Source: Arthrobacter halodurans (GTDB lineage Bacteria; Actinomycetota; Actinomycetes; Actinomycetales; Micrococcaceae). Taken from it: a stretch of 24,000 nucleotides of DNA. Each line of letters opens with the position of its first letter. Within the stretch, counting starts at the first letter, position 1. The notes beneath the pieces are model-generated. The model was not told where the DNA came from, did no database searches, and worked only from the letters and a program-made list of their open reading frames with translations. Shown piece after piece: positions 5,058-24,000 of this stretch. The position numbers and the translations under genes were made by a program. Location of the stretch: the NCBI RefSeq assembly GCF_041877255.1, contig NZ_JBHDLJ010000016.1, forward strand, positions 31,789 through 55,788. The letters are read 5' to 3'.

Positions 5058-5236
5058 GGCTTCTCCTGTGGGTCGAGTGGTGGCACCGGCGGCCGTCTCA
5101 GTCGCCACGCTCCCGAGGACGGAAGGCTGGTGCATGTGTGAGCCTAGTCTCATGCAGCGTGTGTTTCACGCATCCACGGGCACGTCACACCCCGTTCGTG
5201 TCACGATTCGGTCACGGCCGCCCCTCCCGGCGGGCG

Positions 5237-6883
5237 CTACCGGGCGCGGCGCGCGGTCCAGGCGAGGTATCCGCCGAGCGCGCCGACCCCGCCGACCCCG
5301 GCGCGGAACAGCGCTTGCGGCCAGTGCCGCCACCGCCGCGGCTGGGCCCCCACGAGCTCGCCGACGGCGGTGATGAGCGCGGCCGTGACGACGCCGACGA
5401 CGATGCGGTTCCCCGTCCGTTCCACCCGGTCCATCAGCCGGTCCAGCTCCGCCGCCCGCAGGTGCACGTCGAACCCTCCGCGCTCGAGCACGTCGCTGAG
5501 CCGGCGGATCAGGTCGGGGGCGTCGGACCCCAGCCGCAGGCCCTCCAGGGTCAGCCGCTTGAGCCGCTCCGCGATCGCCGCGGGCGAGTAGGACTCGCGG
5601 ACGAGCCGGCGGGTGAACGGCGCGAGGGCCTCCGTCAGCTCGAACTCCGGGTTCACCTGCTTCCCCAGGCCGTCGGCCATGACCAGCATCTTCGCCAGCA
5701 GGGCCGCGTCCCGCGGCAGCCGCAGCCGGTCGCGGCGCAGCAGCCCCACCACCTCCAGGATCGCGGGGGCCAGGGGGACCTCGGAGAGCGGCCTGCCGAC
5801 GTAGCGCGCCAGCATCCGGCCCAGCGACCGCTCCAGCTCCTCGAGGTCCGCGGACGCCGACGCCCCGCACATCCGCGCCAGCGACGCAGCGAGCCGGCGC
5901 TCGTCGCGCTCCACCACCGCCACGAGCGCCCGGACGAGCTGGGCGCGGAACTCCTCGTCGATGTGGCCGACCATGCCGAAGTCGATCACGCCCAGGCTCC
6001 CGCCCGCCTCGACGAAGAAGTTCCCCGGATGCGGGTCGGCGTGGAAGAACCCGTCCTCGAAGACCATCTTCAGCAGGGCCTCGCAGGCACGGGACGCGAG
6101 CTCGTCGGTGTCCATCCCGGCGGCGCGCAGCGCCGCGGCGTCGTTGATCTTGATGCCGCGGATCCGCTCGAGCACGAGGACGCGTGACGTGGTGGCCTCC
6201 CAGAGGACCCGCGGCACGTGGATGCCGGGCACGTCGGCGAAGTTCTCCGCGAAACGCTCGGCGTTGCGGGCCTCCCGCAGGTAGTCGAGCTCGGCGCGCA
6301 GGGTGTCGGAGAACTCCTCGACCAGCGACGCGACGCCGAAGGCCGCGACGGCCGTCGAGGCCCGCTCGGCCCGCTTGGCCAGTTCCGCCAGGACCTCCAG
6401 GTCCAGGTTGATCTGTTCCACGACGCCGGGGCGCCGGACCTTCACCACGACGTCGACGCCGCCAAGCCGGGCGAGGTGCGCCTGGCCGATGGAGCCGGTC
6501 GCCAGCGGGGACTCGGCCATGGACTCCAGCAGCGGCCCTGCCGCGGCGCCCAGCTCGTCGCGGACCACCGCCCGGAGGTCCTCGACGGCCACGGGCGTCG
6601 ACGCGTCCTGCAGCTTCGCCAGCTCCGCGGCGTAGGCGGGCGGCAGGAGGTCCGGGCGCGTGGAGACGATCTGGCCGAGCTTGACGTAGACGGCGCCGAG
6701 GTCCTCCAGGGCCAGCCGCACCCGCTCCGGCAGGGAGGAGTCCCCGTCCGGCGGCGCGGGGTGGCGGGCCAGCGGGTTCCGCGGCACGTGGTGCTCCAGC
6801 TGCAGGTAGGCCAGCGCGAAACCCAGACCGTGCCGCGTCAGCGTCTGCACGATGTCCAGGAAGCGGTCCCGCCGCGCACTCAT
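5237..6883 (-). CDS. ABC1/AarF/UbiB-family atypical kinase with C-terminal TM segments
   Basis: The 548-aa ORF starts at an ATG. ABC1 motifs are present: GSIGQAHLARL..VVVKVRRPG, ELDYLREARNAERF, HADPHPGNFFV and IDFGMVG. Two C-terminal hydrophobic helices follow. Confidence 0.9.
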   Translation of the reverse strand: MSARRDRFLDIVQTLTRHGLGFALAYLQLEHHVPRNPLARHPAPPDGDSSLPERVRLALEDLGAVYVKLGQIVSTRPDLLPPAYAAELAKLQDASTPVAVEDLRAVVRDELGAAAGPLLESMAESPLATGSIGQAHLARLGGVDVVVKVRRPGVVEQINLDLEVLAELAKRAERASTAVAAFGVASLVEEFSDTLRAELDYLREARNAERFAENFADVPGIHVPRVLWEATTSRVLVLERIRGIKINDAAALRAAGMDTDELASRACEALLKMVFEDGFFHADPHPGNFFVEAGGSLGVIDFGMVGHIDEEFRAQLVRALVAVVERDERRLAASLARMCGASASADLEELERSLGRMLARYVGRPLSEVPLAPAILEVVGLLRRDRLRLPRDAALLAKMLVMADGLGKQVNPEFELTEALAPFTRRLVRESYSPAAIAERLKRLTLEGLRLGSDAPDLIRRLSDVLERGGFDVHLRAAELDRLMDRVERTGNRIVVGVVTAALITAVGELVGAQPRRWRHWPQALFRAGVGGVGALGGYLAWTARRAR

Positions 6884-8907: not shown

Positions 8908-10266
8908 ATGCGGCGCAACGTGTTCACCCGGACCCGCCAGGCCCTGCGGTCGGAGCTGTGGCCGGTTCCGACGCTGGCCGTCGTGGCCGCGATCGCCCTG
9001 GGCGTGGCGTTGCCGCAGCTCGACGCGGCCCTCGACGGCCGGACGGCGGACTCCGTCTCCCGCTACCTCTTCGGCGGCGGGCCGGAGGCGGCCCGCTCGG
9101 TCCTCGAGTCGATCGCCGGGTCCCTCATCACCGTCACCTCCCTGACGTTCTCCCTGACCGTCGTGACGCTGCAGCTGGCGAGCAGCCAGTTCTCCCCGCG
9201 CCTGCTGCGCACCTTCACGGGCGACCGCTTCGTCCACGTGACGCTGGCCCTGTTCCTGGCCACCTTCTCCTACGCGCTGACGGTCCTGCGCACGGTGCGC
9301 ACCGCACCGGAGGCCGGGCAGGCCTTCGTCCCCGAGATCTCGGTGACGTTCGCGTTCGTCCTGGCGGTCGCGAGCGTCCTCGCGCTGGTGCTCTTCCTGG
9401 CCCACCTGACCCGGGAGATCCGCGTGGAGACCATGATGATGCGCGTCCACGCGGAGACGAATTCCGTGATGCGGCACGCCTACCCCGAGGACGCCGCGTC
9501 CGGGCCCGGGCCGGTCCCGTCGCGGCCGCCGGCCGGCACGGACACCATCGAGGCGGAGAAATCCGGCTTCCTCACCTCCGTCGACACCAGCGCGATCCGC
9601 TCGGCGGCCCGCGAGGCCGGCGCCGTCGTCGCGGTCGACCGCGGCCCCGGGTCGTCGCTGGTCCGCGGCACGCCCTTCGCCACGTTCTGGCCGGCGGACG
9701 GCCGGCTGGCGCTCGCGGCGGACGACGCAGAGCGGTTGCGGCGCGCGGTCAACGCGGCCATCGGCACCGGCCCGGAGCGGACGGCCGCCGAAGACGTCGG
9801 ATTCGGGCTGCGCCAGCTCGCGGACGTCGCCGCCAAGGCGCTCTCCCCCGGCATCAACGACCCGACGACCGCCGTCCACGCGCTGGGCCACGTCTCGGAT
9901 CTGCTGTGCCGGCTCGCGGAGCGCCGGGTCGGCCCGCTGCTGGTGGCCGACGACGACGGGGGAGGCGGCGTGCGCGTCGTCGTGTCCCGGCCCGGCTTCG
10001 CGGAACTGCTGGATCTCGGCGTCGCGCAGGCCCGGCAGTACGGGATCGACGACCCGGACGTCGCCGCCCGGATCCTGGAGCTGCTGCGCGAGGTCGCCTG
10101 GTGCGACCGCTCCGGCTCGCACACGGCGGCCCTGCGGGACCAGCTGGCGCGGACCCGCGAGGCCATGGCCGCCGCCGCGTACGGAAGCGCCGAGCGCGGC
10201 CGCCTCGAGGCGCTGGGCGGCGCCGTGGGGGACGCGTTGCGCGGCCCGGGCGCAGGCTCCGCCTAG
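8908..10266 (+). CDS. DUF2254 domain-containing membrane protein
   Basis: ATG at 8908 preceded by GAGGGAGG. The N-terminal region is typical of DUF2254 (LESIAGSLITVTSLTFSLTVVTLQLASSQFSPRLLRTF), followed by a soluble C-terminal domain. The first 561 codons of the 1013-aa track ORF are shadow sequence. 452 aa. Confidence 0.8.
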   Translation: MRRNVFTRTRQALRSELWPVPTLAVVAAIALGVALPQLDAALDGRTADSVSRYLFGGGPEAARSVLESIAGSLITVTSLTFSLTVVTLQLASSQFSPRLLRTFTGDRFVHVTLALFLATFSYALTVLRTVRTAPEAGQAFVPEISVTFAFVLAVASVLALVLFLAHLTREIRVETMMMRVHAETNSVMRHAYPEDAASGPGPVPSRPPAGTDTIEAEKSGFLTSVDTSAIRSAAREAGAVVAVDRGPGSSLVRGTPFATFWPADGRLALAADDAERLRRAVNAAIGTGPERTAAEDVGFGLRQLADVAAKALSPGINDPTTAVHALGHVSDLLCRLAERRVGPLLVADDDGGGGVRVVVSRPGFAELLDLGVAQARQYGIDDPDVAARILELLREVAWCDRSGSHTAALRDQLARTREAMAAAAYGSAERGRLEALGGAVGDALRGPGAGSA

Positions 10267-13182: not shown

Positions 13183-13902
13183 CTACAGCAGGCCCCCGAC
13201 GACGTTCGCGATCCGTGGCGACGGGCTCACGCCGAACTCGGCCTTGAGCCGCTCGGAGAAGTCCTCGTACACGCGGATCATCTTGGCCTGGTCGCCCTCG
13301 GCCCGGTAGGTCTCGAGCAGGAGCCGGTGCGCGTTCTCCCGCCACGGGTCGATGTCGACGGCGCGGAGGGCGGCCTCCTTGGCCCGCTCGATCTCCCCCG
13401 CCGCGAGGCATTCCGCGGAGAGCCGTTCGAGGACGGTCAGCCGCATGCGTTCCCAGCGGTCCTGCTCCGCCAGCACCCAGTCCTCGTACCAGCCCGGCAA
13501 CAGTTCGGCGTCGCTCAGCAGCGCCAGCAGCTCGCCGCGTTCGCGGGATCCCCGGGAGACGTCCGCGGCATGGGCGCGACGGCGGATGTCGTCGGCGTCC
13601 ACCACGACGTCGGCGGACAGGGCCATCGGCTGCATCCCGCCGCCGGGGACCAGGCCGCCGGAAAGGAGCCCCGGCAGCTGGTGGTTGATGGTCCAAATGG
13701 TCTCCCGCAGGCTGCCCGTGGCCTGCTTCTCCGTGCTGTTGGGCCAGAGGAGCCCGGCCAGGAGGGCCCGCGGCTGTGGTCCCCGCAGCGCGAGGGCCGT
13801 GATCAGGCGCTGCTGCCGAAGTGTGACCTTGACGGGTTTGCGGCGGTGCAGCAGGCGCCACGTGCCGACGATCTCGACGTCCCAAGACTGTGTGTTCATC
13901 AT
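13183..13902 (-). CDS. SARP/AfsR-family transcriptional activator (OmpR-type winged helix plus BTAD domain)
   Basis: 239 aa. The N-terminus has the SARP DNA-binding pattern (VEIVGTWRLLHRRKPVKVTLRQQRLITALALRGPQPRALLAGLLWP...SLRETIWTINHQLP). The C-terminal BTAD part reads ELLPGWYEDWVLAEQDRWERMRL...IDPWRENAHRLLLETYRAEGDQAKMIRVYEDFSERLKAEFGVSPSP. Confidence 0.85.
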   Translation of the reverse strand: MMNTQSWDVEIVGTWRLLHRRKPVKVTLRQQRLITALALRGPQPRALLAGLLWPNSTEKQATGSLRETIWTINHQLPGLLSGGLVPGGGMQPMALSADVVVDADDIRRRAHAADVSRGSRERGELLALLSDAELLPGWYEDWVLAEQDRWERMRLTVLERLSAECLAAGEIERAKEAALRAVDIDPWRENAHRLLLETYRAEGDQAKMIRVYEDFSERLKAEFGVSPSPRIANVVGGLL

Positions 13903-14066
13903 TCAATGCCCCAAGCGATATCCAGCGTCGTCCTGCCAGCCGTCCGGCGCGCGCTCCCCAGGCGCCCGTGGAGGTAGAAATTTCCCGCTCATCCTTCACC
14001 ATCCAGCATTGGCAGGGACCGGACCAAAGTCAACAGTTGTGAAGGCCGTGACGCAACACGCGGGTA

Positions 14067-14110
14067 ATAACGCACGGATAACAGCCGTGTAACGGGAGAG
14101 AGGTTCAACT
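14067..14110 (+). promoter_or_regulatory. candidate SARP operator and promoter upstream of the aspartate kinase gene
   Basis: Three direct repeats ATAACG (14067), ATAACA (14078) and GTAACG (14089) sit at exact 11-bp spacing, followed by TCAACT at 14105-14110. The same layout recurs at 15574-15617. The region lies 46-89 bp upstream of the ATG at 14156, in a lower-GC divergent intergenic region. Confidence 0.55.
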
Positions 14111-14155
14111 GCAAGTGCATTGACAAGCATTAAACACGGGGACCAGGAGATAGCC

Positions 14156-15559
14156 ATGCCGTACATCGCCCACTCAAGCAGTTCCGGGCCTACGGCCCAC
14201 CCTCTCGGCGCTGCGGAGGGCACGCTTCCCCTGGGCCGGGCGAGCATCGTGGTGCAGAAGTTCGGCGGGTCGTCCGTCGCCGACGCGACGGCGATCCGGC
14301 GCGTCGCCCGGAGGGTGCTCCAGACCCACCAGTCCGGCCACCCGGTCGTCGTCGTCGTCTCCGCCATGGGCGACACCACCGACGAGCTGCTGGACCTGGC
14401 GGCGCGCGTGACCGACACGCCGAAGGCCCGCGAGCTCGACCTGCTGCTCTCCAGCGGCGAGCACGTCTCCGCTTCCCTGCTCGCCCTCGCGCTCGCGGAC
14501 CTGGGCGCGCGGGCGCGGACCTTCACGGGGGCCGACACGGGCCTGCTCACGGACGACACGCACGGCACGGCCCACGTGGTCTCCGTCGACCCGCGCCGCA
14601 TCCGGGCCGCGATCGAGCGCGGCGAGATCCCGATCGTCGCCGGATTCCAGGGGAGGTCCCGGAGGACACGCGAGGTCACCACGCTCGGCCGCGGGGGGTC
14701 CGACATCACGGCCATCGCCCTCGCCGCCGCCCTCAACGCCTCGGTGTGCGAGATCTTCACGGACGTCGACGGGGTGTTCACCGCGGATCCCCGCGTGGTC
14801 CCCACGGCCCGCAAGATCGACACGATCTCCAGCGAGGCGATGCTCGAGCTCGCGGCCTGCGGGGCCAAGATCCTGCACGTGCGCTGCGTCGAGTACGCGC
14901 GGCGCTTCGGGGTCACCCTCCACGTCCGCTCCTCGTTCACGCCGGGCGAGGGCACGGTGGTCCTTCCCGGCGCACCGGCGGTCCTGGTCGATCCGACGGG
15001 CAAGGCGCCCGAGGACGGGATCGTGTCCGCCATCGCCGTGGAGCGCTCGACGGCGAAGATCACCCTCGGCGGCGTCCCCGACGTCACCGCGGCCGCTGCC
15101 CTGCTGGCGGGCGTGGCCGCCCGGGCGAGGCTGCGGATCGACATGGTCGTCCAGCGACCCGCCGCCGGGGACGGGGACCACGCGAGCATCGCCTTCACCG
15201 TTCCCGCGGCGGACGGGCGGCACGTCATGGACGAGCTGGCCACGCGCCGGCCGGTCGCGCGCTTCCGGTCGCTGCACTACGACGACCGCGTGGGGATCCT
15301 GTCGCTCGTGGGCCACGGCATCCGCCACGACGCCGCACTCTCGTCCCGCTTCTTCCGCTCGCTCGCGGAGGCCGGTGTCAACATCGACGTAATTTCCGCA
15401 TGCGAGTCGCGCGTCAGCGTGATGGTCGATGAGGGTTCGCTGGACGTCGCCTGCGAGGCGCTGGCGCGGGCCTTCCCCGGCGGCCCGCCGAGGGACCGCC
15501 AGCCGGGACGCGCCCCGTCCCACGCGGCGGGCCGCATCCACGCGCCGGCGGCCGGTTAG
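14156..15559 (+). CDS. ask: aspartate kinase (cluster-situated paralog)
   Basis: ATG at 14156 after CCAGGAGA. Kinase core motifs are VVQKFGGSSV, VVVVSAMGDTTDELL, LLSSGEHVSASLLALAL, LGRGGSDITAIALAAAL, TDVDGVFTADPRVVP and AACGAKILHVRCVEYA. Two ACT-like regions follow. The protein also has a ~30-aa N-terminal and a ~30-aa C-terminal extension. 467 aa. Confidence 0.9.
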   Translation: MPYIAHSSSSGPTAHPLGAAEGTLPLGRASIVVQKFGGSSVADATAIRRVARRVLQTHQSGHPVVVVVSAMGDTTDELLDLAARVTDTPKARELDLLLSSGEHVSASLLALALADLGARARTFTGADTGLLTDDTHGTAHVVSVDPRRIRAAIERGEIPIVAGFQGRSRRTREVTTLGRGGSDITAIALAAALNASVCEIFTDVDGVFTADPRVVPTARKIDTISSEAMLELAACGAKILHVRCVEYARRFGVTLHVRSSFTPGEGTVVLPGAPAVLVDPTGKAPEDGIVSAIAVERSTAKITLGGVPDVTAAAALLAGVAARARLRIDMVVQRPAAGDGDHASIAFTVPAADGRHVMDELATRRPVARFRSLHYDDRVGILSLVGHGIRHDAALSSRFFRSLAEAGVNIDVISACESRVSVMVDEGSLDVACEALARAFPGGPPRDRQPGRAPSHAAGRIHAPAAG

Positions 15560-15573
15560 GCGGGCGCCCGGAA

Positions 15574-15617
15574 CCAACGCACCGATAACGCCGCAATAAC
15601 GCCGCCGTCCATCAAAT
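15574..15617 (+). promoter_or_regulatory. candidate SARP operator and promoter upstream of the transaminase-synthetase pair
   Basis: Three direct repeats CCAACG (15574), ATAACG (15585) and ATAACG (15596) sit at exact 11-bp spacing, followed by TCAAAT at 15612-15617. The offset from the third repeat is 14 nt, the same as at 14067-14110. The block AACGCAC(C/G)GATAAC is shared between the two sites. Confidence 0.55.
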
Positions 15618-15718
15618 GAAGGCTTGGCGGTCCGTCCCCGGGGAGGGGCGAACCGCTCGGCAGCTCCAGCCAGCGTCGAAGGAAGTCGGGGGAAACCCGA
15701 CGCAAGGAGGAAACCACC

Positions 15719-17110
15719 ATGACCGCACAACCCGAAGTCGCCACCCTGGCCGGCCTCACGGCCCCGGACGTCTCGGGCCCCGTGCCCGGGCCGAAGTCCG
15801 CGCAGATGCTCGCGCGGCAGGCGGCGCGCGAATCGAACGCGCGCAGCTACCCGCGGCGCCTGCCCATCGCCATCGACGAGGCGCACGGGAGCTTCGTGCG
15901 CGACGTCGACGGCAACGTCTTCATCGACTTCCTTGCCGGTGCCGGCGTGCTGTCCCTCGGGCACAACCATCCCGAACTCGTGGCCGTCGCCACGGAACAG
16001 CTCGGCAGGCTCACCCACGGGTTGGACTTCCCCACGCCGGCAAAGGAGGCGTTCACCGACGCCCAACTGTCGATGCTGCCCGCGGCCATGCGCGAACGCA
16101 CGAAGATCCACTTCTGCGGCCCGACCGGCGCCAACGCCGTCGACGCCGCGGTCAAGCTCTGCAAGACGGCCACCGGACGGGGCGACATCGTGGCGTTCCG
16201 GGGTGGCTTCCACGGGGCCAGCGCCGTCGGCATGGCCCTCACCGGGCTGGTCGAGCAGAAGGCCCCGGTCCCCAACGGCGTTCCCGGCGTGCACTTCTTC
16301 CCGTTCCCGTATGCCGCCCGCCCCCCGTTCGGCGGGACCCCGGAGGATTGCGGCCGGCTTTGCGCCGACTACTTCGAAAACGCGCTGCGGGACGACCATG
16401 GCGGGGTGGCCCTGCCCGCCGCGGTGATCCTTGAACTGGTCCAGGGCGAAGGCGGCGTCATCCCCGCCCCCGTGGAATTCGTCCAGCGCGTCAGGGCCGT
16501 GACCCGGGAGCTGGGGATTCCGCTGATCGTCGACGAGGTGCAGACCGGCTGCGGGCGCACCGGCACCTGGTTCGCGTTCGAGCAGTACGGGATCGAACCG
16601 GACGTCATCGTGGCCTCCAAGGCCCTCAGCGGCCTCGGAACACCGGTCGCGCTGATCATGTACGACAAGTCGTTGGACGTCTGGGCCCCCGGCGCGCACA
16701 CCGGAACGTTCCGCGGCAACCAGCTGGCCTTCGCCGCGGGCGCCGAGGCCGTGCGGATCTTCCGGCGCGACCGCGTGCTGGAGAACGTGCGGGAACAGGG
16801 CGAGCGCATCGGCGGGCTCTTCGGCGCCCTCCGCGACCTGCCGTGGGTCCTCGAGGTGCGCGGCCGGGGCATGATGTGGGGCATCGAACTGGTCGACCCG
16901 CTCGACGGGCAGCCCGACGGCGCGCTGGCCCGCGCGGTCCAGGACCGCCTGTTGCAGGAGGGCCTCATCCTGGAGACCGGTGGCCGCGGCGGCGGCGTGG
17001 TGCGCCTCCTGCCGCCCCTGAACTCCAGCTCCGAGGTGGTCGAGACGGCCTGCCGGCTGATCATCGACGCCGTGACGGAGCTCGGGGCGGAGCGGGCGGT
17101 CGCGCCATGA
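15719..17110 (+). CDS. ectB: diaminobutyrate--2-oxoglutarate transaminase (EctB/Dat/PvdH family, class III PLP aminotransferase)
   Basis: ATG after AAGGAGG. 463 aa. The protein is collinear with EctB along its length: SNARSYPRRLPIAI, IDFLAGAGVLSLGHNHP, HGLDFPTPAK, GPTGANAVDAAVKL, LVQGEGGV, DEVQTGCGRTG, the PLP-lysine region ASKALSG and HTGTFRGNQLAF. Confidence 0.88.
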   Translation: MTAQPEVATLAGLTAPDVSGPVPGPKSAQMLARQAARESNARSYPRRLPIAIDEAHGSFVRDVDGNVFIDFLAGAGVLSLGHNHPELVAVATEQLGRLTHGLDFPTPAKEAFTDAQLSMLPAAMRERTKIHFCGPTGANAVDAAVKLCKTATGRGDIVAFRGGFHGASAVGMALTGLVEQKAPVPNGVPGVHFFPFPYAARPPFGGTPEDCGRLCADYFENALRDDHGGVALPAAVILELVQGEGGVIPAPVEFVQRVRAVTRELGIPLIVDEVQTGCGRTGTWFAFEQYGIEPDVIVASKALSGLGTPVALIMYDKSLDVWAPGAHTGTFRGNQLAFAAGAEAVRIFRRDRVLENVREQGERIGGLFGALRDLPWVLEVRGRGMMWGIELVDPLDGQPDGALARAVQDRLLQEGLILETGGRGGGVVRLLPPLNSSSEVVETACRLIIDAVTELGAERAVAP

Positions 17111-20100
17111 CGATGCTCGCCGGTGGCCCCGGGGACCAGCTCCAGGGGACCGTCCTGGGGGCCCCGGAGGCCGACGACGCGATCCGGTGGAGGCCGGGGC
17201 AACGTCTGGACACACTCTTCGAGGAGCGGTGCGACGCCCTGGCGGCCGCGGGGAGGTCCGCGCAGCTCGCCGTCGACTCCCCGGACGCCACCCTCACGTA
17301 CGGCGAGCTGGACGCGGCGGCCAACCGGCTGGCCCGCTACCTCGCGGCGCAAGGCGCGGGTCCCGGCACGAGGGTCGCGCTGCTCTTCGACCAGCCCGTC
17401 CGCTCCTACGTGGCGCTCCTGGCCGTGCTGAAGACGGGCGCGGCCTACGTCCCGCTCGACGCGGGCTTCCCGGAGGACCGGCTCGCCTACATCGTCGGGG
17501 ACGCGGGCGTCAGCCTGGTGCTGACACTGTCCCACCTCCGTGCGAAGCTGCCGCGGATCGCCGCGCGGACGCTGTGCCTGGACGAGGAGGACCCGGCGGT
17601 CGCCCGCCAGGATCCCTCCCGGCCGGCGCGGGAGGCCGTCGGTGCGACCGCCGGCGAGCTCGCCTACATCATCTACACCTCCGGGTCCACGGGACGCCCC
17701 AAGGGGGTCGCCGTGGACCACCCGAGCATCTGCAACTTCGTGCTCGTGGCCGCGGAAACCTACGGCTACGAACCCGGGGACCGCGTCTACCAAGGCATGA
17801 CGATCGCGTTCGACTTCTCGGTCGAGGAGATCTGGGTGCCGTGGATGGTGGGGGCCACGCTGGTGCCCAAGCCCGGGGGCTCCGCGCTCCTGGGCATGGA
17901 CTTGAGCGACTACCTGCAGGAGCGCCGCATCACCGCCATGTGCTGCGTCCCGACGCTGCTGGCCACCCTGGACGAGGACCTCCCCGGGCTGCGCTTCCTG
18001 CTGGTCTCCGGCGAAGCCTGCCCGAAGGACCTGGTCACGCGCTGGCACCGGCCGGGGCGCCGCTTCCTGAACGTCTACGGCCCCACCGAGGCCACGGTGA
18101 CCGCGACGTGGGACGTGGTCCATCCGGACAAGCCCGTCACGCTCGGCGTGCCGCTGCCGACGTACTCCGCCGTGATCCTGGACCCCGAGGAGGCGCGAGC
18201 GCTGCCCGCGGGCGAGCTCGGGGAGATCGGCATCGCCGGGATCGGCCTCGCCCGGGGCTACGTCAACCGCGACGATCTCACCGAGCGGGCGTTCATCCCC
18301 GACTTCCTCGGGATCGAGAACAACCCGTCGGGGAGGATCTACCGCACCGGCGACCTGGGGCGGTTCACGCCCGAGGGCACCATCGAGTACCTCGGCCGGA
18401 TCGACACGCAGGTGAAGATCCGCGGCTACCGGATCGAGCTGTCGGAGATCGAGTCGGTGCTCCTCGAGCACCCCGCGATCGCCCTCGCCGTCGTGGACAC
18501 CCACAGCCCGGCGCCCGGCGTCGTCGAGCTCGCCGCCTACTACACCCTGCGCGGGGACGCCGCGGGGCTGGACGAGGCCGAGCTGGACCGCGCGCTCCGC
18601 GAGCGACTGCCCGCGTACATGGTGCCCGCCTACCTCGACCGGCTCGACACCATCCCCCTGATGCCCAGCGGCAAGGCGGACCGGAAGAACCTTCCGGCCC
18701 CGACCGCCCGGCGCGCGGGCGGCAACGCGGCCGCGTACGTGCCCCCGGAGACGGATGCCGAACGCGCGCTGGCCGAGCAGCTGGGCGCCGTCCTGGGCCT
18801 AGAGCGGCCCTCGGTCGACGCGCACTTCTTCGACGACCTCGGGGCCAACTCGCTGCTGATGGCCCACTTCTGCGCCGGGATCCGCAGGCACACGGATCTT
18901 CCCTCGGCGGCCATGCAGGACGTGTACCAGCAGCCCACGCTCCGGCGCCTCGCGGCGATGCTGGAGGCCGAGCGGATGGCCGCCGAGCTCGCGTCCGCGG
19001 GCGCGGAACCGGCCGCGCCTCCCGCCCCCCGGCCGGCCCCGAGCTCGCTCAAATACACGCTCACGGGCGCGGCGCAGCTGCTGTTCTTCCTCGGCTACAC
19101 CACCTACGCGGCGCTCCTGCTGGTCTTCTCCTTCACGTGGGTCTCCGCGGCCCCGACGCTGTTCGAGCTCTGGCTGCGCAGCATCGCGTTCGGCGCCGGC
19201 ATGTTCGTGGTCCTGACGATCACGCCCGTGCTGTTCAAGTGGGCCCTTGTGGGGCGCATGAAGCAACAGGTGATCCCACTCTGGGGGCTGGGCTACCTGA
19301 GGTTCTGGATCGTCCGGCTGGTGACCCGGGCCAGCCCCATGGCCGCGTTCGTCGGATCCCCGCTCTATGTCGTCTACCTCCGAATGCTCGGCGCCAGGAT
19401 CGGCAAGGGCGTCTCCATCTTCTCCCGCATCGTGCCCGCCTGCCCCGACCTCATCAGCATCGGCGAGGGCACCGTCATCCACAAGAACGCCGTTATGCTC
19501 GGCTACCGCGTCCGCCGCGGCGTGATCGAGACGGGCCCGGTCACGATCGGCAACAACGTCCTGGTGTCCCAGAAGACGGTCTTCGACATCGGCACCGCCA
19601 TGGGCGACGACTCGCAACTGGGCCACGCGTCCGCGCTGCACGAGGGGCAGTCGGTGCCCGCCGGCGAGGTCTGGCACGGATCGCCCGCCGTCCCCGCGGC
19701 CACGAGCTACGCGCGGATCCGGCCCCGGCGCTGCGGGACCCGCCGCCGCGTGGTCTTCAGCGCCTTCCAGCTCTTCAACCGGCTGGTGCTGGTCGTGCCC
19801 GGCGGCCTAATCCTGCTGGCCGGGCTGCTGCCGGGCTACCTTGAGACGGGGCACCTCGAACCCACGAACCCGCTGTTCTACCTCGACGCGGCGCTCCTGT
19901 CGCTGGCGCTCTTCATCGGCGGCATGGTCAGCGGCCTAGTCGCCGTGCTCACGGTCCCGCGGCTGCTCAACCTCGCGACGCCGGCCGAGACCACCTTCCC
20001 GCTCTACGGGATCCGCTACGCGCTCCACCGCATGGTCCTGGCGCTGACAAACATCAAGCCGTACCTGACACTCTTCGGGGACAGCTCGTACATCGTCCAC

Positions 20101-21192
20101 TACCTCAAGGCGTTGGGGTGGGACCTCGGCAAGAAGATCGACCAAACGGGGTCCAACTTCGGTCCCGGCGTGGCCCACGACTCCCCGTACCTCAGCAAGG
20201 TCGGCTACGGCACCATGGTCTCCGACGGCCTGAACATGATGAACGCGGAGTACACGAGCACGTCGTTCCGGCTCTCGGTCGTGGAGATCGGCGACCGCAA
20301 CTTCCTGGGCAACGACATCACCTGGCCCATCGCGTCCCGGGTCGGCGAGAACTGCCTCCTGGGCACCAAGGTCCTCGTGCCCATCGACGGGCCGGTCCGC
20401 CGCGACGTCGGGCTCCTCGGCTCGCCGGCGTTCGAGATCCCCCGCTCCGTCCAGCGTGACAGCCAGTTCGACGACCTGAAGCTGGAGGACGCCAAGAGCC
20501 GGCTGCTCCCGGCCAAGAACCGGCACAACATCGGTTCCATGGCCCTGTATCTGGCCCTGCGCTGGTTCCAGCTCTTCTCGGCGACCGTCATCGGCGCGCT
20601 CTCCGTCGCGCTCTACGACGTGCTGGGCGTGCTCGCCGTCGGCGCCGGGACGCTCATCTTCCTGGTCTATGGCATCCTCCTGTCCGCCTTCGCGGAGCGG
20701 GCGGTGCTGGGGTTCGGGCGGCTCGAGCCGCGGTTCTGCTCCATCTACGACCCCTACTTCTGGCACCACGAGCGCCTGTGGAAGCTGCTCGGCGGGGCGC
20801 CGTTCACGGGGACCCCCTTCCGGCCCATGGTGTGGCGCCTCTTCGGCGTGAAGGTCGGCAAGCGCCTCTACGACGGCGGAGGCGGCCTGGTGGAAAAGAC
20901 CCTGGTCTCGATCGGCGACGACTGCGAGCTGAACGAGGCGTCCATCCTGCAGGGGCACTCCCTGGAGGACGGAACCTTCAAGTCGGGCCACATCACGCTC
21001 GGGAACGGCTGCACGATCGGGGTCGCCGCCTTCATCCACTACGGGGTGAACCTGCAGGACGGCGCGGAAGTGGCGGCTGACTCGTTCCTGATGAAGGGCG
21101 AGGACCTGCCGGTGGACAGCCTCTTCGGCGGCAACCCGGCCCGCGAGCTGGATCCGGCCCGGCAGCTGCGGCGCGTGGCGGCGACCGCCTAG
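17107..21192 (+). CDS. Pls-like single-module NRPS (homopoly(amino acid) synthetase architecture): A domain, PCP, then three repeats of two TM helices plus a hexapeptide-repeat domain
   Basis: The ATG at 17107 overlaps the transaminase stop as ATGA. 1361 aa. A-domain cores are YGELDAAANRLA, LAYIIYTSGSTGRPKGV, FDFSVEE, NVYGPTE, GELGIAGIGLARGY, YRTGDL, GRIDTQVKIRGYRIEL and PSGKADRK. The PCP carries DDLGANSL. The region downstream has six hydrophobic helices in three pairs, alternating with three left-handed-beta-helix/acetyltransferase-like domains. Confidence 0.9.
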   Translation: MTMLAGGPGDQLQGTVLGAPEADDAIRWRPGQRLDTLFEERCDALAAAGRSAQLAVDSPDATLTYGELDAAANRLARYLAAQGAGPGTRVALLFDQPVRSYVALLAVLKTGAAYVPLDAGFPEDRLAYIVGDAGVSLVLTLSHLRAKLPRIAARTLCLDEEDPAVARQDPSRPAREAVGATAGELAYIIYTSGSTGRPKGVAVDHPSICNFVLVAAETYGYEPGDRVYQGMTIAFDFSVEEIWVPWMVGATLVPKPGGSALLGMDLSDYLQERRITAMCCVPTLLATLDEDLPGLRFLLVSGEACPKDLVTRWHRPGRRFLNVYGPTEATVTATWDVVHPDKPVTLGVPLPTYSAVILDPEEARALPAGELGEIGIAGIGLARGYVNRDDLTERAFIPDFLGIENNPSGRIYRTGDLGRFTPEGTIEYLGRIDTQVKIRGYRIELSEIESVLLEHPAIALAVVDTHSPAPGVVELAAYYTLRGDAAGLDEAELDRALRERLPAYMVPAYLDRLDTIPLMPSGKADRKNLPAPTARRAGGNAAAYVPPETDAERALAEQLGAVLGLERPSVDAHFFDDLGANSLLMAHFCAGIRRHTDLPSAAMQDVYQQPTLRRLAAMLEAERMAAELASAGAEPAAPPAPRPAPSSLKYTLTGAAQLLFFLGYTTYAALLLVFSFTWVSAAPTLFELWLRSIAFGAGMFVVLTITPVLFKWALVGRMKQQVIPLWGLGYLRFWIVRLVTRASPMAAFVGSPLYVVYLRMLGARIGKGVSIFSRIVPACPDLISIGEGTVIHKNAVMLGYRVRRGVIETGPVTIGNNVLVSQKTVFDIGTAMGDDSQLGHASALHEGQSVPAGEVWHGSPAVPAATSYARIRPRRCGTRRRVVFSAFQLFNRLVLVVPGGLILLAGLLPGYLETGHLEPTNPLFYLDAALLSLALFIGGMVSGLVAVLTVPRLLNLATPAETTFPLYGIRYALHRMVLALTNIKPYLTLFGDSSYIVHYLKALGWDLGKKIDQTGSNFGPGVAHDSPYLSKVGYGTMVSDGLNMMNAEYTSTSFRLSVVEIGDRNFLGNDITWPIASRVGENCLLGTKVLVPIDGPVRRDVGLLGSPAFEIPRSVQRDSQFDDLKLEDAKSRLLPAKNRHNIGSMALYLALRWFQLFSATVIGALSVALYDVLGVLAVGAGTLIFLVYGILLSAFAERAVLGFGRLEPRFCSIYDPYFWHHERLWKLLGGAPFTGTPFRPMVWRLFGVKVGKRLYDGGGGLVEKTLVSIGDDCELNEASILQGHSLEDGTFKSGHITLGNGCTIGVAAFIHYGVNLQDGAEVAADSFLMKGEDLPVDSLFGGNPARELDPARQLRRVAATA
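17209..18700 (+). other. adenylation (A) domain of the synthetase
   Basis: Core motifs A1-A10 were read directly from the translation. The A10 lysine lies in PSGKADRK (nt 18664-18687). Boundaries are approximate. Confidence 0.85.
18736..18966 (+). other. peptidyl carrier (T/PCP) domain of the synthetase
   Basis: ETDAERALAEQLGAVLGLERPSVDAHFFDDLGANSLLMAHF. The predicted phosphopantetheine-attachment Ser codon is tcg at 18850-18852 (residue 582). Confidence 0.8.
19045..21189 (+). other. membrane-embedded C-terminal polymerisation region (TM1-2, C1, TM3-4, C2, TM5-6, C3)
   Basis: TM pairs lie at about 19060-19260, 19750-19970 and 20527-20715. Hexapeptide-repeat domains lie at about 19381-19690 (LGARIGKGVSIF...VWHGSPA), 20101-20445 (LGWDLGKKIDQTG...LLGSPAFEIPR) and 20833-21150 (FGVKVGKRLY...LFGGNPAREL). 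No HHxxxDG condensation motif and no GxSxG thioesterase domain were seen. Confidence 0.75.
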
Positions 21193-22271
21193 TCGTCCGT
21201 CCCGGCCTCGCCCAAGGCAAGTGTCGCGTGCATGAGGGCGTCCGCCATCGTCTCCAGGACCTCCGGGTCGACGTTGCCCAACGTGTCGCAACTGCGGTGG
21301 TAGCAGGAGTCGTACTTGTCGCCGGGCGTACCGCCGAACGCCGCGGCCTCGGGGTCGGACTTGGACCCCTCGTCCCCCGTGAAGAGGCCGCCGGACGGGA
21401 TGTCCCGGTCCAGGAAGGCCTGGTAGTCGGACCCGCCGTCGAACTCCGTGGGTCCCGCCAGGACGCCCGCGGCGGAGAAGTGGTCCAGGAACACCCGCTC
21501 GATCTCCCCGGAGCCGTTCGGGAGGCGGCCGCCATAGTCCGACCCGTCGCCGTCGTAGACCAGGACGACGCCGTTCGGCGAGCCCACCATGTCCAGGTTC
21601 AGGTACGCCAGGTGCTGTTCGGCCTGCTCGTCGGAGAGCCCGTCGACATAGTGCTCCGAGCCGTACAGGCCGTCCTCCTCGCCACCCCAGAAGGCGAAGC
21701 GGATCCTGTTGGGCGGGACCGTGCCCGATGCGGCCAGCCGCACGGCCACCTCCAGCACCGCCGCGACCCCGCTGCCGTTGTCGTTGATGCCCGGGCCCCG
21801 CGCCACCGAGTCCAAGTGCGCCCCGAGGACGACCGTGCGGGAGGCGTCGCCGGCCGTGTCGGCGACGATGTTGAACGTCTCGATGTCCCTGTCGCGCCGG
21901 CCCTCGTGGCTGAATCCCTGGCGCACCGGGTCGTAGCCGGCGCCGCGCAGGCGGTCCTCCACGTACGCCGCCGAGGCCTCGTAGCCTCCGGTGCCCGACG
22001 CCCGGTTCCCGCCGTTGGCGTCGGCCGCCTCCTGCAGGGCCTCGAGATGCGCGCGCAGCCCCGCTTCGCCCACGCCGGCCCGCAGCTCCGCGCTGTCCGG
22101 GGCCGTGCCGATCTCGATCCCGGGCCGGGACGAGCACCCGGTCAGCACGAGTGACGCCGTCGCGGCGGCGGCGAGCCAGGGGGCGGCGGCGTGCCAGGGG
22201 GCGGCGGCGTGCCAGGGGGCGGCGGGGGCGCGGCGGCGTGTCGACCGTCGGTGGGTGGGGCGGCGTGTCAT
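21189..22271 (-). CDS. M28-family zinc aminopeptidase, predicted lipoprotein
   Basis: 360 aa, starting at an ATG. The signal peptide has a lipobox LVLTGCSS. M28 metal-ligand blocks are present (VVLGAHLDSV, GINDNGSGVAAVLE, FAFWGGEEDGLYGSEHY, LNLDMVGSPN), as is the C-terminal CYHRSCD. Its stop shares the tetranucleotide CTAG with the synthetase stop. Confidence 0.88.
   Translation of the reverse strand: MTRRPTHRRSTRRRAPAAPWHAAAPWHAAAPWLAAAATASLVLTGCSSRPGIEIGTAPDSAELRAGVGEAGLRAHLEALQEAADANGGNRASGTGGYEASAAYVEDRLRGAGYDPVRQGFSHEGRRDRDIETFNIVADTAGDASRTVVLGAHLDSVARGPGINDNGSGVAAVLEVAVRLAASGTVPPNRIRFAFWGGEEDGLYGSEHYVDGLSDEQAEQHLAYLNLDMVGSPNGVVLVYDGDGSDYGGRLPNGSGEIERVFLDHFSAAGVLAGPTEFDGGSDYQAFLDRDIPSGGLFTGDEGSKSDPEAAAFGGTPGDKYDSCYHRSCDTLGNVDPEVLETMADALMHATLALGEAGTDD
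22176..22225. repeat. 18-bp tandem repeat (2 perfect units plus a partial third) inside the peptidase signal-peptide coding region
   Basis: ccagggggcggcggcgtg occurs at 22176-22193 and again at 22194-22211, and 14 nt of a third copy follow from 22212. On the minus strand it encodes AAPWHA-AAPWHA-AAPWLA. Confidence 0.85.
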
Positions 22272-22497
22272 CGGGGCTCCGCGGATCGGCGTGGTGTCGC
22301 TCGTGCTGCGGTCACCCTATGCGGCCGGACGGCCCTTGGAAACACCGGGTGTTGACGGCGGCCGTCGCCGCGGTACGCCTCACGGTGCATGCGAAGATCA
22401 TCCGCAAGTGTCATTCCCCGCGGGGCCCTCCTCGCTAGGCTCGGTTGAACGGACGGGGACCAGGCCCTCCCCTTCACGCCACCCGAGAGGAACCCCC

Positions 22498-22971
22498 ATG
22501 ATCGACGCGCTGCAGGACTTCACCTCGTCGCTGGCCCCCGTGTTGCAGTGGGCGGGGGTGATGCTGGTGGCCGCGATCCCGTTCGTCGAGTCCTACTTCG
22601 GTTCGGTGATCGGCGTGCTCGCCGGAATGAACCCCGCGATAGCGATCGTCGCGGCCATCGTGGGCAACGTGGCCTCGATGCTGGTCTTCGTGCAGAGCGC
22701 GCACGGCGTGCGGTCCAAGGTGGTTGGCGGCAAGGAGCCCCGCGAACCCTCCGCCCGTCGGCAGAAGCTGCGCGCGCAGTTCGACAAGTACGGGGTTGCC
22801 GGCGTGAGCCTCCTGGGCCAGACCATCCTGCCCAGCCAGATCACCTCGGCCGCGATGGTCTCTTTCGGGGCGTCGAAAAACTCCGTGATCCTGTGGCAGT
22901 GCATTTCCATCGTGATCTGGGGCGTTGCCTTCGGCGTCCTCGCCGTCCTCGGCGTCTCGCTCGTCGGCTGA
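22498..22971 (+). CDS. small membrane protein, putative small multidrug export family (Sm_multidrug_ex-like)
   Basis: ATG at 22498 after GAGAGGA. Only the last 157 codons of the 326-aa track ORF look real. There are four hydrophobic segments. AAIPFVESYFGSVIGVLAGMNPAIAIVAAIVGNVASMLVF resembles the family signature. Confidence 0.6.
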   Translation: MIDALQDFTSSLAPVLQWAGVMLVAAIPFVESYFGSVIGVLAGMNPAIAIVAAIVGNVASMLVFVQSAHGVRSKVVGGKEPREPSARRQKLRAQFDKYGVAGVSLLGQTILPSQITSAAMVSFGASKNSVILWQCISIVIWGVAFGVLAVLGVSLVG

Positions 22972-23071: not shown

Positions 23072-23644
23072 ATGGACGCGGTCGCCGATCTCAGCGATCC
23101 GGCACTGGTCGCCCGGGCCCAATCGGGCGATCTCGACGCCTTCGAGGAACTCGTGCGCAGGTACCAGCGCGGGATCCTGCGGTTCTGCCGCGGCATGTTG
23201 GGCAACGGGCCGGACGCGGAGGACGCCGTCCAGGACGTCCTGCTCACCGCGTGGCGACGGTTACCGACCCTACGCGCGACGGAGGCGGCCTCCACCTGGC
23301 TCTACCGGATCGCCTCCCACCGCTGCATCGACGCCCTCAGGAAGCGGCGGCCCGACGGCGGCGACCCCGCCGAGCGCGAGGCGTCGCAGACCGGCAGCGA
23401 GGCCAGCCGACGCCTCCCCGCGGGGCCCGAGGGCGCGGCGGAAACACGGCTGGCCCTCGACGCGTTGCGCGGGCATCTCGCCGCACTGCCCGACACCCAG
23501 CGCGAAGCCTGGACCCTGCGCGAGGTCCAGGGAATGAGCTATCAGGACATCGCGCGGATCACCGGAGAACCACTAGCCACCGTGCGCGGGCGCATCGCCC
23601 GCGCACGCACGGCCCTGGCCGAAAGGATGGACTCGTGGAAATGA
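23072..23644 (+). CDS. ECF-type RNA polymerase sigma-70 family factor
   Basis: ATG at 23072. 190 aa. Region 2 reads FEELVRRYQRGILRFCRGMLGNGPDAEDAVQDVLLTAWRRL...WLYRIASHRCIDALR. Region 4 reads LPDTQREAWTLREVQGMSYQDIARITGEPLATVRGRIARAR. Confidence 0.9.
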   Translation: MDAVADLSDPALVARAQSGDLDAFEELVRRYQRGILRFCRGMLGNGPDAEDAVQDVLLTAWRRLPTLRATEAASTWLYRIASHRCIDALRKRRPDGGDPAEREASQTGSEASRRLPAGPEGAAETRLALDALRGHLAALPDTQREAWTLREVQGMSYQDIARITGEPLATVRGRIARARTALAERMDSWK

Positions 23645-24000
23645 CCACAGGACCCCGGGGCGTGCCGGCGTGCGACCGGTCCGAGGAAGACGTCTGGGAA
23701 CGCCTCGATCTCCCGCCCGACGGGCACGAGGCCTCCTGCCCGCACTGCCAGGAGCAGCGACGGCGCCTGCAGCCGCTCCTCCAGGCCACGCGGGGGCTGC
23801 GGGGCACCCCCGAGCAGGAGACCGAGGAGGACGCCGTGCTCGAGCGGGTCCGCCGCTCGGTCATGGACGGCATCCGCGCCGAGATCCGCCGCGGCCGCCG
23901 CATCCGCGTGCGGCTCACCCCGCGCGGCCCCGTCGACGTCAGCGTCTACGTGCTGAACGAGGTCATCCGCCGCGCCGCCGACACGATCGACGGGATCGAA
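23641..24000 (+). CDS. putative anti-sigma factor with a ZAS-like zinc motif and the start of an Asp23/Gls24-like domain (3' end outside window)
   Basis: This ORF is absent from the ORF track because it has no stop within the window. I translated it by hand. The ATG at 23641 overlaps the sigma stop as ATGA. It reads MTTGPRGVPACDRSEEDVWERLDLPPDGHEASCPHCQEQRRRL..., which contains H-x3-C-x2-C. The later sequence VDVSVYVLNEVIRRAADTIDGIE is Asp23-like. Confidence 0.6.
   Translation, partial: MTTGPRGVPACDRSEEDVWERLDLPPDGHEASCPHCQEQRRRLQPLLQATRGLRGTPEQETEEDAVLERVRRSVMDGIRAEIRRGRRIRVRLTPRGPVDVSVYVLNEVIRRAADTIDGIE

Follow-up and report, generated by a model that had tools for sequence, protein, structure and literature searches.

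Introduction

Two gene clusters for homopolymers of 2,4-diaminobutyrate (Dab) have been characterised. In the account of Yamanaka et al. (2020) contained in PMC8117764, the pldA-dat-ask cluster of Streptomyces celluloflavus is that of gamma-poly-L-Dab. The gamma-poly-D-Dab cluster of Streptoalloteichus hindustanus comprises the synthetase PddA, the pyridoxal phosphate-independent racemase PddB, the transaminase PddC (Dat) and the aspartate kinase PddD (Ask), and pddB is translationally coupled to the synthetase gene in all reported homologous PddA-type loci (PMC8225329). The epsilon-poly-L-lysine synthetase Pls of Streptomyces albulus consists of an adenylation (A) domain, a thiolation (T) domain and three units of a transmembrane (TM) pair plus a soluble domain, while polymer-degrading enzymes (Pld/PldII), which are thought to be self-protective, are encoded next to pls (PMC8117764, PMC8506220). 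Clusters built around such Pls/PosA-family synthetases are routinely reported by antiSMASH as 'NAPAA' regions in Arthrobacter and Pseudarthrobacter and are common to Micrococcaceae strains, without product assignment (PMC11078813, PMC12025171). Here we analyse a locus of this class from Arthrobacter halodurans, which belongs to the Micrococcaceae rather than to the Streptomyces-type actinomycetes. It lies within 24,000 nucleotides of contig NZ_JBHDLJ010000016.1 (positions 31,789 to 55,788 of the forward strand; hereafter the window) and comprises genes for a Streptomyces antibiotic regulatory protein (SARP), an aspartate kinase, a Dab-forming transaminase, a Pls-type nonribosomal peptide synthetase (NRPS) and an M28 aminopeptidase. 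We consider it probable on balance that the locus is a SARP-activated cluster for a cationic L-Dab homopolymer.

For whole-locus comparison with the pldA cluster, the loci L006 (Streptomyces sp.) and L007 (Embleya sp.) served as PldA-type proxies, since their synthetases carry the exact PldA specificity code and their gene order, synthetase-dat-ask, is the published one. Common to both sides are a Pls-type synthetase whose code is identical to that of PldA at eight of nine positions, a Dat-type transaminase (68-70% identical), a dedicated Ask (47% identical) and the lack of a racemase. However, the gene order in the window is ask-dat-synthetase, the synthetases belong to different clades, code position 7 is A in PldA and V in the window, and no SARP was seen near L006 or L007. 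PddA shares the pocket DFECLS with the window enzyme, but differs from it at code positions 7 and 9, is accompanied by the coupled racemase that the window locus lacks, and is ~55% identical in the A-domain core, which is an approximate value because the PddA and PldA fragments used for comparison were rebuilt from a machine-read published figure. Pls shares the overall architecture and an adjacent peptidase gene with the window locus, yet its code is DAESIGTVVK, its A-domain core is 43% identical and neither dat nor ask accompanies it.

Gene organization of the locus

Because the DNA of the window is rich in GC (0.67-0.77), the GC content of third codon positions (GC3) was used alongside a listing of open reading frames (ORFs) for gene calling. 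Both agreed on five genes, at exactly the coordinates given by an earlier, sequence-only reading of the same DNA. That reading had also described an overlap of the NRPS start with the transaminase stop, which is indeed present as ATGA at 17107-17110; likewise, the palindromic CTAG at 21189-21192 forms a convergent stop common to the NRPS and M28 genes. The features of the locus are:

13183-13902, minus strand: small SARP-family transcriptional activator, 239 aa (Pfam BTAD, 64 bits; winged helix from an AlphaFold model)
14066-14110, plus strand: candidate SARP-dependent ask promoter (three 11-bp direct repeats, 6-bp spacer, -10-like TCAACT)
14156-15559, plus strand: pathway-specific aspartate kinase (ask), 467 aa, with divergent ACT region (ribosome-binding site aggag; NCBIfam aspartate-kinase equivalogs)
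15573-15617, plus strand: candidate SARP-dependent dat-NRPS promoter (three 11-bp direct repeats, 6-bp spacer, -10-like TCAAAT)
15719-17110, plus strand: L-2,4-diaminobutyrate:2-oxoglutarate transaminase of the Dat subfamily, 463 aa (TIGR00709; Aminotran_3)
17107-21192, plus strand: Pls/PosA-family synthetase (NRPS), 1361 aa (Pfam and NCBIfam, A motifs, hydropathy)
17248-18675, plus strand: A domain of the synthetase (motifs A3, A4, A5, A7, A8 and A10 present)
18766-18963, plus strand: T domain of the synthetase (PP-binding, PF00550)
19066-21141, plus strand: C-terminal membrane polymerase region with three TM pairs and three soluble domains (TIGR02353, hydropathy)
21189-22271, minus strand: aminopeptidase of the M28 family, Streptomyces griseus aminopeptidase type, predicted lipoprotein (Pfam Peptidase_M28, 156 bits; lipobox LTGC)

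Architecture and specificity code of the synthetase

The synthetase matches TIGR02353 ('Pls/PosA family') with 636.8 bits (cutoff 423.1) over positions 3-695 of the 695-position profile, and it shares 100% identity with a protein of A. halodurans (P0001). PF00501, PF13193 and PF00550 were the sole NRPS domains detected, and neither a condensation nor a thioesterase domain was found with Pfam and NCBIfam. Hydrophobic pairs at residues ~658-710, 893-950 and ~1143-1201 delimit three soluble blocks, with five of the six helices being clear in a Kyte-Doolittle plot. The A-T-(2TM + soluble domain)x3 architecture put forward by the sequence-only reading is thus confirmed, as the profiles TIGR02353, PF00501 and PF00550, which it had named for a check, matched, TIGR02353 over its full length, and the three hydrophobic pairs are in place.

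Within the A domain, the motif FDFSVEEIW supplies D235, F236 and E239 and thereby acidic residues (Asp/Glu) at code positions 1 and 3, which according to a published rule bind the diamino acid (PMC10522769). The Stachelhaus code reads DFECLSVVT(K). Published codes are DFECLSAVTK for PldA (L-Dab), DFECLSCVSK for PddA (D-Dab), DFEYVGTVTK for 2,3-diaminopropionate (Dap), DAESIGTVVK for Lys, DMEHNGTVSK for Orn and DGESVSVVNK for beta-Lys (PMC10522769 Supp. Table 2). The window code agrees with PddA at seven of nine positions and follows the Dab-type pattern DFECLS-x-V-(T/S)-K, while position 9 is T as in the L-specific PldA and S in PddA. Of the 120 closest homologues, whose hosts include Arthrobacter, Streptomyces, Pseudonocardia, Kibdelosporangium and Blastococcus, 110 have exactly this code. 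In the homologues P0071, P0073, P0076 and P0077 a 4'-phosphopantetheinyl transferase (PPTase) domain is fused to the synthetase.

Precursor supply and its conservation in relatives

The transaminase passes TIGR00709 'dat' (445.9, cutoff 401.6) and stays below the cutoff of the EctB model TIGR02407 (352.8, cutoff 552.2). Consequently, of its earlier assignment to the EctB family the Dab-forming function stands, but the protein is not an EctB equivalog. Ectoine synthesis was rejected, as the transaminase fails the EctB equivalog model and neither ectA nor ectC occurs within 27 kb (17 kb upstream to 10 kb downstream), in agreement with the sequence-only reading. Besides its likeness to the Dat of L006 and L007, the protein is 76% identical to that of L092.

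The kinase possesses AA_kinase and ACT domains and matches the aspartate-kinase equivalog NF005155 with 440 bits (cutoff 346), so that the previously proposed pairing of an aspartate kinase with a Dab-forming enzyme holds in terms of Pfam and NCBIfam families. It aligns to LysC of C. glutamicum (3AAW) at E 2e-116, and the catalytic half aligns well. Between residues ~290 and 400, both ACT ligand loops are without the Pro-Gly of LysC (KPG to VTA, HPG to DAA), and the residues aligned to S301, T308 and T311 are all Ala. We take positions 301, 308 and 311 of LysC to be feedback-resistance sites, which provides a lead and not a test. By this alignment, an altered feedback control of the window Ask is suggested. 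Other cluster-linked Ask paralogues are similarly divergent in the ACT region.

To place these genes in context, the neighbourhoods of relatives that share the window's code were sampled. A class-III transaminase gene lies directly upstream of the synthetase gene in every one of them, and ask is adjacent in seven sampled relatives, including Kibdelosporangium, Pseudonocardia, Arthrobacter sp. PM3, Planctomonas and A. pigmenti; no ask was found nearby in one sampled Streptomyces. The dat-ask-synthetase core, whose survey the sequence-only reading had proposed as an ask-ectB-pls triad, recurs in most sampled relatives. The transaminases themselves are of two types. The ~463-aa Dat type (68-76% identity) is found in the window, in Pseudonocardia, Kibdelosporangium and Streptomyces and in the PldA-type clusters. 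Mainstream Arthrobacter, Planctomonas and A. pigmenti have a ~423-aa true EctB equivalog (TIGR02407 ~630, cutoff 552) that is 38% identical to the window Dat and occupies the position of window 15719-17110:

L086 (Arthrobacter sp. PM3), 5160-6431: EctB-type transaminase
L087 (Planctomonas), 4920-6191: EctB-type transaminase
L088 (A. pigmenti), 5219-6541: EctB-type transaminase

Two transaminase lineages with the same reaction were recruited independently beside one synthetase clade, and this is the strongest contextual argument for Dab as the monomer. Since its Dat type is otherwise seen in Pseudonocardiales and Streptomyces, a mosaic origin of the A. halodurans cluster is suggested. The order ask before dat is common to the window and Arthrobacter sp. 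GCM10027362.

With respect to stereochemistry, no DapF/PddB-like gene was found in the window, over the next 7 kb downstream or at the loci of the nine relatives sampled. Because of this absence, and because the gene coupled to the synthetase here is dat, L-Dab is the simpler reading. The sequence-only reading had made the same guess, with which the absence of a racemase gene within 27 kb and the T at code position 9, as in PldA, agree. Its broader proposal, a Dab-type homopolymer pathway with its own precursor supply, is supported by the A-domain code, by the family and synteny of the transaminase and by the lack of racemase, ectA and ectC genes.

On a forest-soil contig (L005 3770-9268, P0104), synthetase and Ask were called as one protein of 1832 aa with Ask at the C-terminus. 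This may be a Rosetta-stone-type fusion or else reflect a frameshift in the assembly. The synthetase P0075 of A. pigmenti (L088 8001-13487) and P0074 are ~400-450 aa longer than the window enzyme. The difference is due to a second A-domain-like region, which is divergent (34-35% identity to the A domain of the window enzyme) and precedes the normal A-T-membrane module.

The SARP regulator and its candidate boxes

Pfam matched the BTAD domain of the regulator, while its winged-helix DNA-binding domain was not recognised. An AlphaFold model (41 homologues aligned, pLDDT 94.6) superposes along its entire length on the SARP domain of promoter-bound AfsR (8K60/8HVR) over 245 columns with a TM score of 0.76, and on EmbR (2FEZ) as well. 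Judged by this model, the regulator is a genuine small SARP composed of an N-terminal OmpR-type winged helix and a BTAD domain as in AfsR, although its sequence identity to AfsR is ~23%.

Upstream of ask, the 11-bp repeats AATAACGCACG GATAACAGCCG TGTAACGGGAG are followed by a 6-bp spacer and TCAACT at 14105-14110. Upstream of dat, the 11-bp repeats ACCAACGCACC GATAACGCCGC AATAACGCCGC are followed by a 6-bp spacer and TCAAAT at 15612-15617. The repeat core is RTAAC. ATAAC-N6-ATAAC occurs twice (0.00 matches expected), and so does the triple TRACR pattern (0.02 expected); Tandem Repeats Finder also detects an 11-nt tandem repeat at 15585-15605. SARP targets are described as direct repeats 11 or 22 bp apart, the 3' repeat being located ~8 bp from a weak -10 (PMC10936776). 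The window boxes, with 11-bp repeats and a putative -10 hexamer 6 bp past the last 11-mer, would fit this rule. They would resemble the afs box in having repeats one helical turn (11 bp) apart that overlap the predicted -35 region at a fixed short distance from a putative weak -10. However, the afs box has two repeats and the window boxes have three with an RTAAC core, and the hosts are Micrococcaceae/Microbacteriaceae instead of Streptomyces. Scanning the surroundings of the cluster for sigma-70 promoters gave no -35/-10 pair, a result compatible with a need for an activator.

The triple repeat is present in only four of the 92 loci that were fetched (1.6 Mb). Besides the A. halodurans locus, these are the Planctomonas locus, where it precedes dat, that of Arthrobacter sp. 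GCM10027362, where one site precedes ask, another precedes dat and a third points towards the contig end, and that of A. mobilis (L091, boxes 4977-5002 and 9830-9855, one of them directly upstream of an operon of a PALP gene and a synthetase gene). The same four loci are exactly those with a homologue of the window SARP beside the polymer-synthetase cluster. All sites lie upstream of biosynthetic genes and are co-oriented with them, align without gaps and have the -10-like hexamer in a fixed register. These SARP boxes are previously unreported. No SARP was found near the cluster of Arthrobacter sp. PM3, and most Arthrobacter relatives are without SARP linkage. SARP control, as claimed by the sequence-only reading, is therefore backed by the SARP fold and the conserved boxes upstream of ask and dat-NRPS, but is confined to few relatives.

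The A. mobilis locus is a split system (L091 1-4835, minus strand). After the gene for a PALP (SbnA-like) enzyme comes one for a stand-alone protein of two tandem T domains and a Pls-type membrane region, which is 44% identical to that of the window, and the A domain is then encoded by a separate gene. The system might make a Dap-type polymer or another one. Both the PALP-synthetase operon and the SARP gene carry triple RTAAC boxes, and IS110/DDE transposases lie between them. In A. ramosus (L090 9791-9806, minus strand), a SARP homologue of 42% identity is divergent from a glycosyltransferase operon, and in the shared promoter region GTAAC occurs twice at a spacing of 11 bp, with the hexamer CATGCT at the corresponding position. 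Thus, neither the SARP family nor its box is restricted to polymer clusters.

The M28 aminopeptidase

The M28 protein matches keratinase KP1 (8AC9) at 1e-73 and the S. griseus aminopeptidase (1CP7) at 1e-59, and the alignment keeps the metal-ligand motifs GAHLDS, NDNGSG, GGEEDG, NLDMVG and CYHxxCD. A lipobox, LTGC, at residues 43-46 predicts a lipoprotein. Homologues of 44-55% identity occur in the clusters of Arthrobacter sp. PM3 (L086), Planctomonas (L087) and A. pigmenti (L088) and at the PldA-type Streptomyces locus L006, where the identity is 45%; lipoboxes are also present in those of PM3 and Planctomonas. By analogy to Pld/PldII beside pls, and it is only by analogy that PldII and the M28 protein were compared, the latter would be a candidate hydrolase for polymer trimming or self-protection. 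At the 5' end of its gene (window 22164-22225, minus strand), there is an 18-nt tandem repeat of 3.4 copies (97% match), owing to which the N-terminal region has three copies of APWHAA before the lipoprotein signal. This repeat could point to a start codon that was set wrongly or to variability in the n-region of the signal peptide.

Proposed pathway

From these components, the following route can be envisioned. The dedicated Ask, probably freed of feedback by Lys and Thr, would drive the conversion of aspartate to aspartyl-phosphate, from which a housekeeping Asd encoded elsewhere would form aspartate semialdehyde. The Dat-type transaminase would convert the latter to L-Dab, and the translationally coupled, membrane-bound synthetase would adenylate L-Dab and load it onto its T domain. 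The three C-terminal domains would then polymerise L-Dab iteratively, presumably via the gamma amine as in the known polymers, and the polymer would be released at the membrane. Binding of the SARP to the triple 11-bp repeats, which would replace the -35 of both P(ask) and P(dat-NRPS), would co-activate supply and polymerisation. Outside the membrane, the lipoprotein M28 might act on the polymer in trimming, turnover or self-protection.

Phylogeny and alternative explanations

The sequence-only reading had proposed a phylogeny of the synthetase, which we computed as a neighbour-joining tree of a 157-residue A-domain core that included PddA, PldA, Dap, Lys, Orn and beta-Lys synthetase fragments from a published alignment. 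In this comparison with CHARACTERISED enzymes, PddA groups with the PldA types and the window's clade is their sister. According to this tree, the synthetase appears to belong to a large uncharacterised clade sister to PldA plus PddA. Its A domain is 43-47% identical to those of L006 and L007.

Several points weigh against a poly-L-Dab synthetase. The enzyme is placed outside the PldA/PddA clade in the tree, which rests on the A-domain core and on approximate reference fragments. By the same approximate measure, its core is 55-56% identical to PldA and PddA and equally close, with 56.3%, to the Dap synthetase. The C-terminal region is ~29% identical to PldA-type enzymes, and V at code position 7 matches neither A of PldA nor C of PddA. 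The feedback argument for Ask leans on the C. glutamicum mutation positions named above. SARP binding and the -10 assignment at the boxes are predictions from the DNA. Racemase, PPTase and asd must or could be encoded elsewhere in the genome, as the search was limited to the locus, and poly-Dab from Arthrobacter was not found in the searchable literature. Because the synthetase falls outside the PldA/PddA clade, its product remains a prediction; by pocket and context the enzyme seems to resemble a poly-Dab synthetase, yet it does not appear to be a member of the characterised clade.

One might speculate further that the enzymes form a third and very widespread clade of Dab-type synthetases, near-universal in Micrococcaceae, whose divergent C-terminal region may lead to a product that departs from the two known gamma-poly-Dab polymers, for example by its linkage, chain length or attachment, with a housekeeping or stress role instead of an antibiotic one. 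In a subset of species, a small SARP acting via RTAAC triple repeats would then govern both Dab-type and PALP-linked split clusters. We regard this extended picture as tentative and unlikely as a whole. Another alternative, according to which the enzyme activates Dab without making a free gamma-linked homopolymer, the product being alpha-linked, oligomeric and short, or envelope-attached, with a physiological instead of an antibiotic role, is rather doubtful as well. It would fit the low identity of the C-terminal region, the near-universal occurrence of the clade in Micrococcaceae (PMC11078813), which is unusual for an antibiotic, and the extra acyltransferase or glycosyltransferase neighbours or second A-like domain of some relatives. 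However, the enzyme matches TIGR02353 from end to end and has the three-pair topology of Pls, no acceptor-modifying gene is conserved across the loci, and all characterised family members release free isopeptide polymers (PMC10522769).

That the polymer is poly-D-Dab, with a racemase encoded elsewhere or not recognised and an A domain that is D-selective as in PddA, we hold to be improbable. In the known pair, stereochemistry is set by A-domain selectivity together with a free racemase (PMC8225329), and PddA and PldA lie at the same distance from the window enzyme, whose residue at code position 7 is neither of the L type nor of the D type. Yet the coupled upstream gene is dat, whereas pddB is coupled in all reported PddA-type loci; a DapF-like gene is absent within 27 kb and from the nine sampled relatives, and T at position 9 is that of PldA and not the S of PddA.

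It is still less probable that the monomer is a different basic amino acid (Dap, Orn, Lys or beta-Lys) and that dat and ask serve another purpose, even though the A-domain core matches the Dap synthetase and the Dab enzymes equally well and, according to the PosA paper, sequence hardly distinguishes the groups for Dab, Dap and beta-Lys (PMC10522769). Code positions 4-6 are C-L-S as in both Dab enzymes, compared with Y-V-G for Dap, S-I-G for Lys and H-N-G for Orn. In addition, the stop of dat overlaps the start of the NRPS gene, two lineages of Dab-forming transaminases co-occur with the synthetase clade, and neither SbnA/SbnB-type Dap genes nor a lysine aminomutase were found in the window and the 7 kb downstream of it. 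A Dap polymer in particular was rejected on the grounds of the missing SbnA/SbnB-type genes and the differing code positions 4-6. Finally, a silent or decaying cluster without product is very improbable: Pls of C. variabile gave no product under standard conditions (PMC8117764) and the promoters are without sigma-70-like -35/-10 pairs, but all five ORFs are intact with a strong GC3 coding signal, the catalytic motifs are intact as well, and weak core promoters are expected for SARP-dependent genes (PMC10936776).

Surroundings of the cluster

The remaining coding regions of the window comprise an Opp-type ABC transporter, an ABC1 kinase, AzlCD, an AI-2E transporter, DUF2254, an AlaX-like protein, a glycerophosphodiesterase, DUF445, a small membrane protein and an extracytoplasmic function (ECF) sigma factor with its likely anti-sigma factor. 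The 7 kb past the right edge contain an Asp23-type stress operon, a hydrolase and a cyclase-like gene. Directly downstream of the cluster (window 23072-24000 and L001 15966-19748), the ECF sigma factor and likely anti-sigma factor are followed by an Asp23/DUF6286/CsbD stress-protein operon.

No asd, ectA, ectC, racemase/epimerase, PPTase or convincing exporter gene was found in the window and the 7 kb further downstream, which for asd and a dedicated exporter had already been stated in the sequence-only reading. The small membrane protein of ~159 aa at 22492-22971 (plus strand) was considered as an exporter and rejected: it scores 23 against PF06695 (small multidrug export; cutoff 30.7), has no homologue in any related locus and is probably outside the polymer system. 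In Arthrobacter sp. PM3, the synthetase gene likewise ends in a 4-nt overlap with a convergent gene (L086 12281-12284), which in this case encodes an MMPL-family transporter. The latter is a possible exporter and has no counterpart in the window. An Rfam scan of the window gave no match and thus no sign of a riboswitch or leader in front of ask, and no intrinsic terminator was found in a scan around the cluster.

Implications for Arthrobacter and the polymer family

The sequence-only reading had seen possible novelty in a compact operon with dedicated ask and ectB-like genes. This did not hold: the supply operon is not new, because both characterised poly-Dab clusters already carry ask and dat (PMC8225329, PMC8117764) and the dat-ask-synthetase core is widespread. 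What is new is modest and consists of the prediction of poly-Dab production for an Arthrobacter, a sister clade that is large and uncharacterised, the order ask before dat and a SARP-box regulon. The known picture of how such polymers are made stays unchanged by the locus. The SARP boxes provide a practical handle, as overexpression of one small activator should switch on the promoters of both supply and polymerase. If confirmed, the reading favoured here, a cluster for an L-Dab homopolymer, would extend poly-Dab production beyond a few filamentous actinomycetes and would assign poly-Dab, instead of the often-assumed epsilon-polylysine, to the NAPAA cluster that is reported in nearly every Arthrobacter-type genome.

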